Assembly (NCBI GenBank): GCA_963662275.1 | Contig: OY759316.1 | Span: 448,001-512,000 of the forward strand | Direction of reading: 5' to 3' | DNA length: 64,000 nt | Source: Candidatus Cloacimonadales bacterium | GTDB taxonomy: Bacteria > Cloacimonadota > Cloacimonadia > Cloacimonadales > DAONDQ01 | Shown: positions 9,335 through 15,234 of the stretch, piece after piece | Numbering within the stretch: the stretch's first letter is position 1 | Layout: the number at the start of each line of letters is the position of its first letter | Made by a program: the position numbers and the translations under genes | The notes under the pieces: model-generated | What the model was told of the DNA's origin: nothing | Database searches by the model: none | What the model saw: only the letters and a program-made list of their open reading frames with translations

Positions 9335-9559
9335 GCTAAATTCCTTTATCTTTTATTTTTTTCTGATGGCAGAATAAATGTAGATAAAAGTTAGTCAAAT
9401 GATTTGATAAATAGAGGACGCTTCCAATAGAAAGCACCATAAATCTCATTTAGACAAGATGTAGTTAAATATACGATACTATTTCTTATTTCAATTTTCA
9501 AGAGATAAATTCGCATGATTTGACGTAGGCTACTTATCAAATTTGTCAAAAAAATAAAC

Positions 9560-9588
9560 TTGACTTGAAATTGAAACAATCTTATAAA
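9560..9588 (+). promoter_or_regulatory. Putative sigma70 promoter
   Basis: TTGACT-17 bp-TATAAA about 50 bp upstream of the ATG at 9640. Confidence 0.45.
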
Positions 9589-9639
9589 CTGCTATTGTTA
9601 TTGTTTATAATAATGACTGCAATTATTGAAGGAGGAACT

Positions 9640-10524
9640 ATGAAATTCATCTTTCTAATTTGGCTAGTACTATTGACATCTTTTCTATGTGCACAAGCTC
9701 AAATGAATGTGCATACTACAACAGGCACTACTACGATTAATCTTAATGAAATTACAGATATCACTTTCAGCCAGGGGACAATAATGGAGGATATGATATT
9801 CGTTCAAGGTGGAACGTTTAACAATGGAACTTCGAATGTTACAGTATCTTCTTTTTACCTGGATAAGTATGAAGTGAAACAAAGCGAATATCAATTAGTA
9901 ATGGGTAATAATCCTTCGCAATTCTCAAACGTAACGAATGGACCTGTGGAGCAAGTTAACTGGTACAGTATCATCGAGTATTGCAACAAACGGAGTATGA
10001 ATGAGGGATTGACTCCTTGTTATAGCTACAGTACCTATGGGACAGATCCAATGAACTGGCCTACTTATTGGAATTCAGCGAATGAGAATCATATCAGTAT
10101 ATCCTGTAACTGGGGAGCCAATGGTTATCGACTTCCTTCTGAAGCAGAATGGGAATTTGCAGCTCATGGCGGAACTCAGACTCACAATTATACGTACAGT
10201 GGCAGCAATACGCTTGGAGATGTAGCCTGGTATTTTTTAAACTCGGGAATGGTTACCCATCCCGTGGGAATAAAAGCCGCTAATGAACTTGGTTTATTTG
10301 ATATGAACGGTAATGTTTGGGAATTTGTATGGGATATCTACGAAGATTATTCAAATGAACCCCAAAATAATCCACACGGTCCTGTAACAGGAGATTACCG
10401 TGTTGTCCGTGGGGGAGGTTGGGATGATATTGCAACCAATTGTCTGTTAACACTCAGGGCAACTAGTGAACCTACGATGTATGGGCACAATGTCGGTTTC
10501 AGAGTATGCAGGACGACTCCTTGA
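9640..10524 (+). CDS. Exported FGE-sulfatase (SUMF1)/C-type-lectin-fold protein, paralog 1
   Basis: GGAGG RBS + ATG at 9640; signal peptide; YRLPSEAEWEFAA, NELGLFDMNGNVWE, RVVRGGGW, GFRVCR. Confidence 0.9.
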   Translation: MKFIFLIWLVLLTSFLCAQAQMNVHTTTGTTTINLNEITDITFSQGTIMEDMIFVQGGTFNNGTSNVTVSSFYLDKYEVKQSEYQLVMGNNPSQFSNVTNGPVEQVNWYSIIEYCNKRSMNEGLTPCYSYSTYGTDPMNWPTYWNSANENHISISCNWGANGYRLPSEAEWEFAAHGGTQTHNYTYSGSNTLGDVAWYFLNSGMVTHPVGIKAANELGLFDMNGNVWEFVWDIYEDYSNEPQNNPHGPVTGDYRVVRGGGWDDIATNCLLTLRATSEPTMYGHNVGFRVCRTTP

Positions 10525-10535
10525 TTGTTCCTAAG

Positions 10536-10561
10536 GATTGCCAAATTCCAATTTGGCAATC
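10536..10561 (+). terminator. Hairpin after FGE paralog 1 (terminator or REP-like)
   Basis: GATTGCCAAAT-TCCA-ATTTGGCAATC, perfect 11-bp stem without a clear U-tract. Confidence 0.45.
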
Positions 10562-10719
10562 ATAGATTTACAAAGAATCTTGTCCCCCTTGTGAAGAGAT
10601 TAGGGAAGGGATTTTTCATTGTTCAATAAGAGTAGCTTCCAATTCCTTCTTTTCAGCACAAGAGAACAACTGGAAAACGACAGTTAATAAACACTCAAAC
10701 GATGCCTATAATTCTCTCA

Positions 10720-10774
10720 AATCCTAAGAGAATCCTACGTGAATCCTTAGGGAATCCTGAGGGAGTCCTGAGGG
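10720..10774. repeat. Five 11-bp tandem repeats (AATCCTNNGNG)
   Basis: aatcctaagag aatcctacgtg aatccttaggg aatcctgaggg agtcctgaggg. Confidence 0.8.
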
Positions 10775-10916
10775 TAGTGTCTTTGCAGTATTTCTTTAGG
10801 AATTTAGAAGTTGACATCAAATTGATATTGATCTGAAATAATAAAGAAAATAAAGTATTCTTGTTAGAAATATGATTGATGGATGATATCCAAGACTATC
10901 CAATAGGGAGGTTTCT

Positions 10917-12389
10917 GTGCGTAAAAGTATTCTATTTATCATCTTGGTCTTTCTCGCATTTGTTTTGGTCAGTTGTGATAAGAAAACGACTGAACCAAAC
11001 ACAACCCCGGATTTCGAACTGAATGGAACCTGGACTGGAATAGATCCTACAGGTGGTAAAGAACCTGTTGAATTTCTTCTGAATTTAACAAATACGACGA
11101 GTGAATGGGTATATCCAACTTTTACGGCAAATGCTGGTATTATTCAATACAATAATGATACAAATACTATGATATTACTTTGGACTAATCATCCTGCAGG
11201 TAATGAGATGGTAGGGAAATATATGAAAGTGATATGGAGTGATGCAAAATCGACTGTTGTCATTATCCAGCCATATACTCAACAAGCTACTCTTTCTGTT
11301 GCATCAAGTACAACAGATACTGGTAGTTACCCAGCAATTACGCTCACGAAAACTGCTACCAATACCTGTGCCACTCCCACTTTCAATCTTGCAGGCGGAA
11401 CTTATGCTTATGCTCAGAATGTCACGATATCTTGTGCCACGAGTGGAGCAGCCATCCGCTATACAACTAATGGCAGTGATCCAACAGTATCCTCCACATC
11501 ATATTCCAACCCAATAAATATCGCATCAACAACTACCTTAAAAGCAAAAGCCTTCAAATCAGGATGGACTGATAGCGCAATTGCTGCTGCCACTTACACC
11601 ATCGGGACAACCCAAGGGCAGATGGTATTCGTGCAGGGAGGGACGTTTACTATGGGTGATACTCATTGTGGCGAAGACTTAAATGAATTGCCTACCCACA
11701 GTGTGACAGTATCATCCTTCTACATGGATAAATATGAGCTGACACAGTCTGCCTACCAGGCTGTGATGGGCGTAAATCCATCTCATTTTACTGGTGTAAC
11801 AAATGGACCTGTTGAACAAGTCACCTGGTTCAATGCAGTAGAATACTGTAATAAACGTAGTAAGAATGAAGGTATCACACCCTGTTACAGTTATAGTACT
11901 TATGGCGCTAATCCTGCCACTTGGCCTGGGGGTTGGAATTCCGATTACAACAATCATATCAATTTATCCTGCAATTGGACGGCAAATGGCTATCGCCTAC
12001 CGACAGAAGCAGAATGGGAATTTGCCGCTCATGGCGGAAACCAATCTCACAATTATACCTATAGTGGCAGTAACACAAAAGGTGATGTGGCTTGGTATTG
12101 GGATAACTCAGGCAGTACGACTCACACCGTGGGTACCAAGACAGCCAATGAATTAGGCTTATATGACATGAGTGGCAACGTCTTTGAGTGGAATTGGGAC
12201 ATTTATGGCACGTATTCAAATGGTGCGCAGACTAACCCGCATGGTGCTGTGAGCGGGTCTGGTCGTGTGTTCCGATGCGGAAGCTGGGGACCCGATGCTG
12301 AGAGCTGCACTGTTTCCTCTCGGAACGCCAGCGTCGCCACTAACAGCGACTACAATATGGGCTTCCGCGTGTGTAGGAATTCCCCTTGA
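10917..12389 (+). CDS. Lipoprotein with chitobiase/FN3-associated domain and C-terminal FGE/CLec domain; probable DGR target protein
   Basis: Lipobox LVSC; ATPTF...GGTY...VTISCATSGAAIRYTTNGSDP domain; YRLPTEAEWEFAA, DMSGNVFEW, GFRVCR; NNC-rich 3' end. Confidence 0.88.
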   Translation: MRKSILFIILVFLAFVLVSCDKKTTEPNTTPDFELNGTWTGIDPTGGKEPVEFLLNLTNTTSEWVYPTFTANAGIIQYNNDTNTMILLWTNHPAGNEMVGKYMKVIWSDAKSTVVIIQPYTQQATLSVASSTTDTGSYPAITLTKTATNTCATPTFNLAGGTYAYAQNVTISCATSGAAIRYTTNGSDPTVSSTSYSNPINIASTTTLKAKAFKSGWTDSAIAAATYTIGTTQGQMVFVQGGTFTMGDTHCGEDLNELPTHSVTVSSFYMDKYELTQSAYQAVMGVNPSHFTGVTNGPVEQVTWFNAVEYCNKRSKNEGITPCYSYSTYGANPATWPGGWNSDYNNHINLSCNWTANGYRLPTEAEWEFAAHGGNQSHNYTYSGSNTKGDVAWYWDNSGSTTHTVGTKTANELGLYDMSGNVFEWNWDIYGTYSNGAQTNPHGAVSGSGRVFRCGSWGPDAESCTVSSRNASVATNSDYNMGFRVCRNSP

Positions 12390-12408
12390 TTTTCCAGAAT
12401 GCTGGATC

Positions 12409-12732
12409 GTAACATAGTTTGGCAAACTGTTGTATTAGACAATGGTATTGTCGAATGCTGCTTCCATCGGGGATTACCAATCCCATTATACAACAGAGTA
12501 CCACTCTATGCAACAACGGTGGTGATTACTTTAGGAATCGTGGCAGTATCGTTTATGTTGCTTTCCTTTAGAGAAACAATACCTGAAGGAATTTCCACAC
12601 AGCTGAAGGAGTAGCCACCAATGGCAGTAACATACATTGGTAATGTGTTGTAACTGACAATGGTATTGTCGAATTGTGCTTCTATCGGGGATTACCAATC
12701 CCCTCATACAACAGAGTACCACTCTATGCTAC
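12409..12732. repeat. Two ~106-bp direct repeats (218-bp period), each an inverted doublet of REP-like hairpins
   Basis: 12409-12514 and 12627-12732 align with few mismatches; terminal units GT(A/T)(A/G)CATA-N4-GG(T/C)-N4'-TGTTGTA; internal GGGGATTACCAATCCC hairpin. Confidence 0.85.
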
Positions 12733-13072
12733 CCCCGAGGTTACAAACCATCGGGGGATAACATAATAAGCATTTCCCATCATAGGCATGATTGGATATG
12801 CTGTTGAACAAGCTCAAGTAGCAGGGTGATTTTGAATATGTATTTGGAAATTGCTTTTTGAAGATTTCTTGGGTTGAATTGGATTTTTACAATTTTAGCA
12901 GAGTCTTTTACCAATGGAAGAGATGATTTTCTTTTCAGAAGTTATCAAATCACTTTGAGATCAGACTTTTTGTGTATGGGCTGATATTGTTTTCAAGTAT
13001 TTTAGCAAATTGCCTGTAATATTTCGGTTGTTTCTATAATTTAGGCAAGACAATCCCGTCGGTAAAATTAAC

Positions 13073-14215
13073 TTACAGTTTACCGCCATCAAAGCAATTT
13101 GCCAAAAACAACAGCGACCAAGGCGGTGATCTTGGTTTTCCGGTAATTGAAGCATGCTGTGTCATCTTTGATTTGCAATTAGGGCAGAGGTCTTTTTCAA
13201 ATTTGGGAATTACAAAAGTTTTAGCTGTCTGATTCTTGTCATTAGAATCGGACTTTGCTGGGAAAAAGCTGTTGACCATCTCCCAGACAGATTTTGCCGC
13301 CGGACTGAGAAATCCGTAGTATCTGATTTTCTGAAATCCCTGCGGCAGAACATGCATCAGGAACTTATTGATAAACTCCACGGAGTCGACGCTTTTAAAG
13401 GCGAATTTAGCTGAACCTGCCGGCTTGTATTTAAAGGTTACCAGCCCGTCCTTTTCCCAAAGGATGCGATTGTTGGTGATGGCGGTCCGATACACATAAT
13501 TGGCCAAATAAGTCAGAGCCTCCCGACCTTTTCCGACGGGTCGGGAGTCTGTGACAAACTCTTTTTGCTGCCAGACTAGCGGGGATATCCGACCAAACAG
13601 ATGCTGATTTTCCAGTCGAAGCAAATCACGGAATTTTGCCCGGTAAATCACCGAAAGAGCTTTGACCGGAATCAGGAACTTATTGCCTGCTTTTTGCCAT
13701 TCCTTTCGTTCTTTATTCCAAGCTCCGCCGGGGACTATATAATGAATATGAGGATGATATTCAAGCTGCCTTGTCCAGGTATGAAGTACCCCGGTAAAGC
13801 CTGAAACGCCACCGGCATATTTGGGATCTGAAAGCAATGTCTTTAAGGCTTCAGATGATGCTTTGAACTGAAGATCATAAAGCAGTTTCTGATTTGACAG
13901 GCATGTTTTGTGCAGTTCCCGGGGTATGGTGAAAGTTACCATGAAGTACTTAACCGGCAGCAGTTTGGCAAGCTGCTTTTCCAGCCATTTCGCTGAATCA
14001 TTACGGCCACACTTCGGGCAGTGACGGTTTTTGCAGGAATGATAGGAATAATGCAGTTCCGCACATTCCTGGCATAAATAGACTTCTCCGCCCAGTTCAG
14101 GTGTCCGGCAAAGGAGAATATCTCTGATCGCTCTTAAATGGCTTTCCGGTGACTGGTTTCCATATTTTTCCAGATACTCGGACAGGTTGTTTTTGAGAAT
14201 CCTGCTAAAATCCAT
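13073..14215 (-). CDS. IS91-family (Y2 HUH) rolling-circle transposase
   Basis: CRT..LGG, SCKNRHCPKC zinc domain, FTIP, LHTW...HPHIH (HUH), YLANY, HVLPQGFQKIRYYGFL. Confidence 0.93.
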   Translation of the reverse strand: MDFSRILKNNLSEYLEKYGNQSPESHLRAIRDILLCRTPELGGEVYLCQECAELHYSYHSCKNRHCPKCGRNDSAKWLEKQLAKLLPVKYFMVTFTIPRELHKTCLSNQKLLYDLQFKASSEALKTLLSDPKYAGGVSGFTGVLHTWTRQLEYHPHIHYIVPGGAWNKERKEWQKAGNKFLIPVKALSVIYRAKFRDLLRLENQHLFGRISPLVWQQKEFVTDSRPVGKGREALTYLANYVYRTAITNNRILWEKDGLVTFKYKPAGSAKFAFKSVDSVEFINKFLMHVLPQGFQKIRYYGFLSPAAKSVWEMVNSFFPAKSDSNDKNQTAKTFVIPKFEKDLCPNCKSKMTQHASITGKPRSPPWSLLFLANCFDGGKL

Positions 14216-15088
14216 TTACATCTTATTCATCAGTTCATTGATGATTTTACATGACTGCTCTCGGGAAACGTTAGTCAAATGCACGTATACCATGGTCGCT
14301 CTAAGACTTTCGTGCCCGAGCAAGTCTTTGATGATGATGATACTGACACCTGCTTCCAATAAATGTGTGGCATAAGAATGTCTGAGTGTATGACAGGTTA
14401 CATGCTTAGGGATGCGTGTCTCCTTTAAGGCTGACTTCAGAGCTGACCGAAGAGTTTGGACAGAAATCTGGTTCGAGGTTGTCATTCTGTTAATATCAGC
14501 CTGTCTGGTGCTTCTGCTCGGGAATAAAAGCTGTCTGTTCTGATGGGTTTTCCAATATTCCCGGAGTTCCTGATACAATTTTTCAGGCAGAGGTATTGAC
14601 CTGTCTTTGTTGCCTTTGGATTGCCTTACCGTGATGGTCATCAATTCCCGGTTGATATCGGCTATTTTAATCTTGACTGCTTCCGAAATCCTTAATCCGC
14701 ATTGATAGGTAAGAGTCAGTAAGAGTCGATAATCATAAGTATGAATGCGGGAGATAAGCATTCTAACTTCGTCTGTGGTCAGAATCACAGGAAGTTTGTG
14801 CTCAATCTTTGCCTTAAAAAAGGTAAAATCCTCTTGCCTGAAACCAACAACATGGATGAAAAAAAATCTGATGCCATAATAGGCTGATTTTAAACTCTGA
14901 GGACTATAATTCTTGACGTTATGCAGGTAGACAAAATATGTTCTTACCTGTTCAATAGATAGTGTGCCGGGGTCTTGACCATAATATGATGCTAAAGAAG
15001 TGACTTGTCTGATGTAATTGTATTTTGTCTCTCGGGACACGCCTCGAAGATCAAGGCACTCTAAAAAGCGAACTTCGTATGATTCCAT
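14216..15088 (-). CDS. Tyrosine recombinase (phage-integrase family) with N-terminal SAM-like domain
   Basis: GLRISE (R), SKGNKDR (K), HTLRHSYATH, LLGH, TMVY: complete catalytic set. Confidence 0.93.
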   Translation of the reverse strand: MESYEVRFLECLDLRGVSRETKYNYIRQVTSLASYYGQDPGTLSIEQVRTYFVYLHNVKNYSPQSLKSAYYGIRFFFIHVVGFRQEDFTFFKAKIEHKLPVILTTDEVRMLISRIHTYDYRLLLTLTYQCGLRISEAVKIKIADINRELMTITVRQSKGNKDRSIPLPEKLYQELREYWKTHQNRQLLFPSRSTRQADINRMTTSNQISVQTLRSALKSALKETRIPKHVTCHTLRHSYATHLLEAGVSIIIIKDLLGHESLRATMVYVHLTNVSREQSCKIINELMNKM

Positions 15089-15234
15089 ACTTACCTCCAG
15101 TTAATTTTGGGGGTAAGTATGCTTTTAGTGAGGGTTCAGTATATCAATAGTTTAAATGCATGAAACACGAGTTTACTGCGAACGGTACTGCTGCTTGCAG
15201 CTTCGTTCAACAAGATACATTCTTATGATACAAC

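Follow-up and report, generated by a model that had tools for sequence, protein, structure and literature searches.

Organization of the locus

The window analysed here is a stretch of 64,000 nucleotides from a Candidatus Cloacimonadales genome assembled as a single 4.38-Mb contig, which is 99.97% complete and contains no N. The gene at 10917-12389 encodes a 490-residue protein made of an N-terminal hydrophobic stretch, a CHB_HEX_C/Fn3-associated domain (PF13290) and a C-terminal FGE-sulfatase domain (PF03781). The hydrophobic stretch ends in LVSC, which, judging by eye, we take to be a lipobox. The top PDB match of the product is the DGR variable protein TvpA of Treponema denticola (2y3c, E=2e-43). 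A second FGE gene neighbours this one, and a REP-like repeat cluster and an IS91-like element follow it (Table 1). The 5.8-kb block formed by these features is lacking in another genome of the same genus, G001, where the flanking housekeeping genes sit side by side. G001 has nine FGE matches; neither a DGR cassette nor a close match to the variable repeat described below was detected in it, so that no ancestral cassette of the genus was found.

Table 1. Features at and around the gene 10917-12389 (positions of the window)
Feature	Position	Strand	Basis or remark
5.8-kb block: two FGE genes, repeat and IS	9412-15234		missing from same-genus genome G001
Neighbouring FGE paralog with erased scar (internal negative control)	9565-10524	+	domain scan, comparison with template repeat
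TvpA-like, probably former DGR target; predicted lipoprotein, 490 aa	10917-12389	+	domain scan, PDB match
FGE-sulfatase-like (CLec-fold) domain, residues 234-486	11616-12374	+	domain scan
Putative fossil variable repeat	12252-12376	+	likeness to template repeats of relatives; limits approximate
IMH-like end and start of T-rich trailer (..TCCCCTTGATTTT)	12377-12393	+	common to cis targets of relatives
5-bp hairpin TCCAG-AATG-CTGGA	12393-12406	+	sequence, folding; at junction with the repeat
REP-like repeat cluster (palindromes 12438-12452 and 12470-12484)	12405-12735	+	where the cassette hairpin is expected
IS91-like element (Y2 transposase 13073-14215, tyrosine integrase 14216-15088)	12758-15200	-	domain scan, copy search

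The 3' end of the gene bears the codon scar of a DGR

The original prediction took the end of this gene for a DGR variable repeat (VR) because of its high GC content and its NNC/NNT codons. The GC content is indeed 0.58 at 12241-12390, compared with 0.317 at 11101-11160; the part of the FGE domain upstream of the tail, at 0.455, is a fairer baseline, and only 0.09% of the 132-nt windows genome-wide reach the value of the tail. The repeat had been placed at 12258-12407. Likeness to the template repeats (TRs) of related genomes does cover the first part of this interval, from about 12252, and stops at about 12376, short of the predicted end. The VR is thus located, as in DGR targets, at the 3' end of the gene and in the C-terminal CLec/FGE domain. 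Beyond 12393, the remainder of the trailer that follows the targets of relatives is missing, and so is their GC-rich hairpin.

The VR was compared with the TRs of relatives, which belong to another family and do not include the cognate TR. Against one of these (L040), positions 12264-12368 differ at 20 of 37 A and at 10 of 68 non-A positions (p=3e-5). Since TR adenines coincide with variable residues in any case, protein constraint partly confounds this comparison, and a third-base test was therefore added: a DGR changes positions 1 and 2 of AAC/AAT codons and leaves position 3. The template third base was retained in 8 of 11 changed codons, where the third-base composition of the upstream sequence predicts 3.2 (P=0.003). 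Hence the codon pattern is present beyond chance. The third-base test is the cleaner of the two, yet with 8 of 11 codons the evidence that it provides for this gene is moderate. In the neighbouring paralog 9565-10524, 32 of 68 non-A positions are mismatched and the third base is kept in 3 of 12 codons. Together, the adenine-biased differences and the third-base retention support the view that the tail of 10917-12389 was written by a DGR.

Six changes in the VR are explained by none of 14 TR alleles, and all of them lie within its 5' 48 nt (6/33 versus 0/32, p=0.024, for one of ten genes tested). This hints that the latest rewrite may have covered the 3' half of the VR only. The 5' boundaries of VRs are described as variable (PMC5758913).

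DGR cassettes are present in related genomes

A search of relatives with the tail revealed a DGR cassette in genome G003. Five more TRs were obtained with a pattern guessed from the paralogs, a search which is circular; an independent RT search found a DGR-type RT in 45 of 203 genomes of the order, with the same kind of TRs adjoining. TR/VR-like DNA occurs in 98 of the 203, many of them fragmented, and the excess over the RT count indicates that targets are often separated from cassettes. The cassettes of relatives are ordered as target, T-rich trailer, hairpin, HRDC, avd, RT and TR. Their hairpin is a GC stem of 9-10 bp located about 80 nt past the stop codon, and TRs are highly conserved across relatives.

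In cassettes with an intact RT, eight of nine cis target-TR pairs show 0-1 non-A mismatches. The ninth pair (L106, genome G060) has 5, and L106 is also the sole intact-RT cassette with a mismatched hairpin; this single case is consistent with a need of the hairpin for diversification. An RT-deleted cassette likewise shows 5 non-A mismatches between target and TR. With its 10 non-A mismatches, the VR of 10917-12389 is judged to have drifted. The 6 nt past the GFR codons are identical in TR and target in all nine intact cassettes. Two decaying cassettes were also seen in relatives: L041 has lost avd and most of the RT, and L024 has HRDC fused to a partial TR.

FGE paralogs of the genome carry graded scars

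Tblastn gave 48 FGE matches in the genome, 45 of which were taken into scoring; since one of these (1700742) failed to align, 44 domains remained. Their scars range from near-pristine to erased. The four freshest paralogs retain the third base in 44/44 changed codons and show 4-8 non-A mismatches out of 68; the two freshest have two changes each without a match in known TR alleles. About 16 domains have 17 or fewer non-A mismatches, 10917-12389 ranks seventh in freshness and many domains show no signal. The series includes a 3333-aa ORF (G000:C1:2908029-2917568; G000 is the present genome) with ten FGE domains, two internal ones bearing fairly fresh scars (10 and 11 non-A mismatches). The VR of another gene (G000:C1:3267897-3268685), followed by a REP-like repeat, resembles a second TR type with a Pro codon instead of Ala.

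In 13 fresh domains, identity at 4-fold synonymous sites upstream of the VR averages 42%. Where residues differ, their third bases are identical in 697 of 965 VR codons (72%) versus 1574 of 4078 upstream codons. The contrast between 42% and 72% indicates that template copying into the VRs postdates the divergence of the genes. The 6 nt past the GFR codons exist in at least five versions among the paralogs; given that TR and target agree at this site in cassettes, this suggests several successive TR alleles.

Quick trees of the domain without the VR, of modest support, place 10917-12389 in a group of eight genes from this genome (SH-aLRT 93). The 11 sampled targets of family f3 make up a clade that includes none of this genome's genes (SH-aLRT 95), and one orphan from genome G040 groups with two genes of this genome. 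A single clade of the 12 fresh genes was neither shown nor rejected by the AU test (p-AU 0.126).

No DGR machinery is detected in the genome

The original prediction proposed that the gene is diversified in trans and expected a non-coding copy of its tail near an RT and an avd gene. Blastn of the whole genome with the tail returned only paralogous gene ends and no TR. In an ungapped genome scan tolerant of differences at A, the best non-self site had 25 non-A mismatches to the VR, and the same scan with five other VRs gave no site below 13. A genome search for AAC-rich windows hit VRs of paralogs and one simple tandem repeat but no TR. Two sites considered as TRs, at 615354 and 1953187 of this genome, were rejected as truncated or broken target genes.

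No DGR RT was found among the 18 RVT_1 matches of the genome, which consist of 17 group II intron RTs, falling in two sequence groups, and one RT-Cas1 fusion; this typing was made on 8 of the 18 ORFs, covering both groups and the fusion, the others being equal-scoring copies. The DGR RT of a relative shares at best 24-29% identity with them. The fusion (G000:C1:3092718-3095408, 896 aa) has an RT domain and ends in a Cas1-like part; its N-terminal part is probably Cas6-like, both Cas parts being recognized by eye. All matches of the avd model in the genome stayed below the cut-off, and four-helix-bundle genes considered as avd were rejected because they are sub-threshold for Avd and score as 23S_rRNA_IVP. 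The genome contains no homologue of the HRDC protein of the relatives' cassettes and no copy of their hairpin; the Rfam search gave two sub-threshold matches only.

Contigs spanning the VR show 0 differences in 4/4 runs from 2 studies, with one contig per run among the matches listed; rare variants are dropped on assembly, and the genome may itself stem from the sample of the best run. When a relative's cassette (L044) was compared with four runs at 80% likeness, only pieces of 37-48 nt at the TR start were covered, which does not prove that the cassette is absent from them. With RT, TR, avd and HRDC missing from the genome and a VR that has drifted at non-A positions, diversification in trans is not borne out. 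The VR is likely frozen, since the genome no longer encodes a DGR. The idea of an orphan target that has lost its cassette is, by the same searches, supported at the level of the genome: the VR matches the TRs of other genomes at non-A sites, and both RT and TR are absent from its own.

A small hairpin, REP-like repeats and an IS follow the gene

The hairpin that had been noted after the stop codon is present and is predicted to fold, but its reading as a DGR feature does not hold: it is absent from the paralogs and differs from the hairpin of intact cassettes. Hairpins of DGR targets have been described as GC-rich stems of 7-10 bp with a 4-nt loop, downstream of the VR (PMC3240598), longer than the 5-bp stem found here, which is probably incidental.

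The REP-like repeat ends the cassette trailer before the hairpin position. It occurs at 49 dispersed loci and is restricted to the genus among the 41 genomes searched. Most of its palindromes are rich in AT and have 3-nt loops, unlike DGR hairpins; stems covary, and one array adjoins a Y1_Tnp gene, with 15 Y1_Tnp matches genome-wide. REP/REPIN repeats are intergenic palindromes that cluster next to a gene for a Y1 (RAYT-like) transposase. Among the 32 FGE domains with a nearby stop, the repeat comes immediately after 11 of the 14 gene ends with no more than 17 non-A mismatches and after 0 of the 18 others; as this cut-off was picked post hoc and the genes are related, the p value of 3e-6 overstates the association. 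Another paralog family likewise has the repeat downstream at a constant spacing, so that co-duplication may explain the association. The fresh gene ends followed by the repeat span different N-terminal architectures and include the one VR that resembles a second TR type. A role of these repeats in the control of DGR editing, either by destroying the hairpin and freezing a selected variant or by offering a substitute cruciform for rewriting in trans, is conceivable and in our opinion rather doubtful. If true, the FGE family would amount to an archive of binding sites left by successive visiting DGRs. The exchange of the hairpin for a REP-like repeat offers a testable lead on target retirement.

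The loss of the cassette had also been tied to the adjacent mobile element. The IS91-like element exists in 13 copies with 99.9-100% identity and is thus probably younger than the drift of the VR. No cassette remnant was found beside it and most of the other scarred paralogs have no such element next to them. It is a bystander, and the proposed link is not borne out.

A probable former DGR target in a genome without the element

Taken together, these data make it highly probable that the 3' end of 10917-12389 was once rewritten by a TvpA-type, HRDC-containing DGR, that it is now likely frozen and that the element is gone from the genome. An ancestral multi-target DGR, probably with several successive TR alleles, would have resided in the lineage and would have delivered A-mutagenised cDNA to paralogs scattered over the genome, long after the divergence of these genes. 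Its loss would then have left a fixed repertoire of predicted binding-site variants.

Alternatively, the gene could have arrived already diversified and without a cassette, in a lineage that never ran a DGR. The absence of the 5.8-kb block from G001, the several templates implied by the versions of the 6 nt past GFR and the frequent separation of targets from cassettes in the order would fit such a transfer. The conservation of TRs also makes the scars left by a single resident DGR similar to those expected from several donors. However, eight genes of this genome, including 10917-12389, group together with independently randomised VRs, and the sampled f3 targets group apart, so that we regard transfer as improbable. 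It would alter the history of the gene, not its frozen status.

Still less probable is that the gene continues to be edited in trans by a DGR of a sub-population or of a replicon missing from the assembly. Remote targets of DGRs are known (PMC5758913), and the scarcity of changes unexplained by known TR alleles in some paralogs (one or two) indicates that loss of the DGR is recent or has not yet happened. This reading is nevertheless opposed by the lack of any DGR component in an almost complete single contig, by a VR with 10 non-A mismatches where intact pairs have 0-1, by the missing hairpin of the lineage behind the VR and by the invariance of the spanning contigs, among the matches listed, in all four runs.

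Ordinary binding-site divergence within an enlarged FGE family, without the action of any retroelement, is largely refuted and hardly credible: it would account for variable residues that coincide with TR adenines and for the many domains without signal, but not for third bases kept despite amino-acid change here and in the four freshest paralogs, next to near-saturated synonymous sites upstream, a combination that does not come from protein selection, and the homologous genes of relatives are proven cis DGR targets.

We consequently favor a rewritten and then abandoned target. A DGR-like tail followed by a small hairpin does not, by itself, show ongoing diversification, a caution that applies beyond this gene, and the whole genome constitutes a natural series for the fixation and decay of DGR output after loss of the element.

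Comparison with known systems

Cloacimonadota DGRs receive only passing mentions in the open-access literature, in which we found neither leftover targets of this lineage nor a link between DGRs and REP repeats; the supplements of PMC5758913 and PMC8144416 may list DGRs of this phylum. By sequence, TvpA is the closest structural relative of the 10917-12389 product, which differs by its extra N-terminal domains. The cassettes of relatives, with HRDC, avd, RT and TR, resemble the HRDC-containing DGRs (architecture C) described by Wu et al. 2018 (PMC5758913); unlike these, the present genome has targets only. In cyanobacteria, CLec paralogs at scattered loci are reported to retain traces of TR-VR homology, e.g. 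all3226 of Nostoc PCC 7120, and removal of the machinery after selection is proposed in the same article (PMC7517822). There as here, the family is expanded and VR/TR homology varies, but the cyanobacterial genomes, as described, keep a DGR and the present one has none.

The closest parallel is found in T. denticola, whose isolates without RT or TR keep 'leftover' targets, six of them in isolate al-2, with VRs that differ from the TRs of other strains mostly at adenines (Nimkulrat et al. 2016, PMC4891356). The gene 10917-12389 is most likely a leftover target of this kind, already published for Treponema. The FGE/CLec lipoproteins, several per genome, the HRDC-type DGR and the repeated gain and loss described in that article are matched here. 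The present case differs from that description by its phylum, by more scarred genes (about 16 domains), by a graded series of decay and by a REP-like repeat where the hairpin would be expected.
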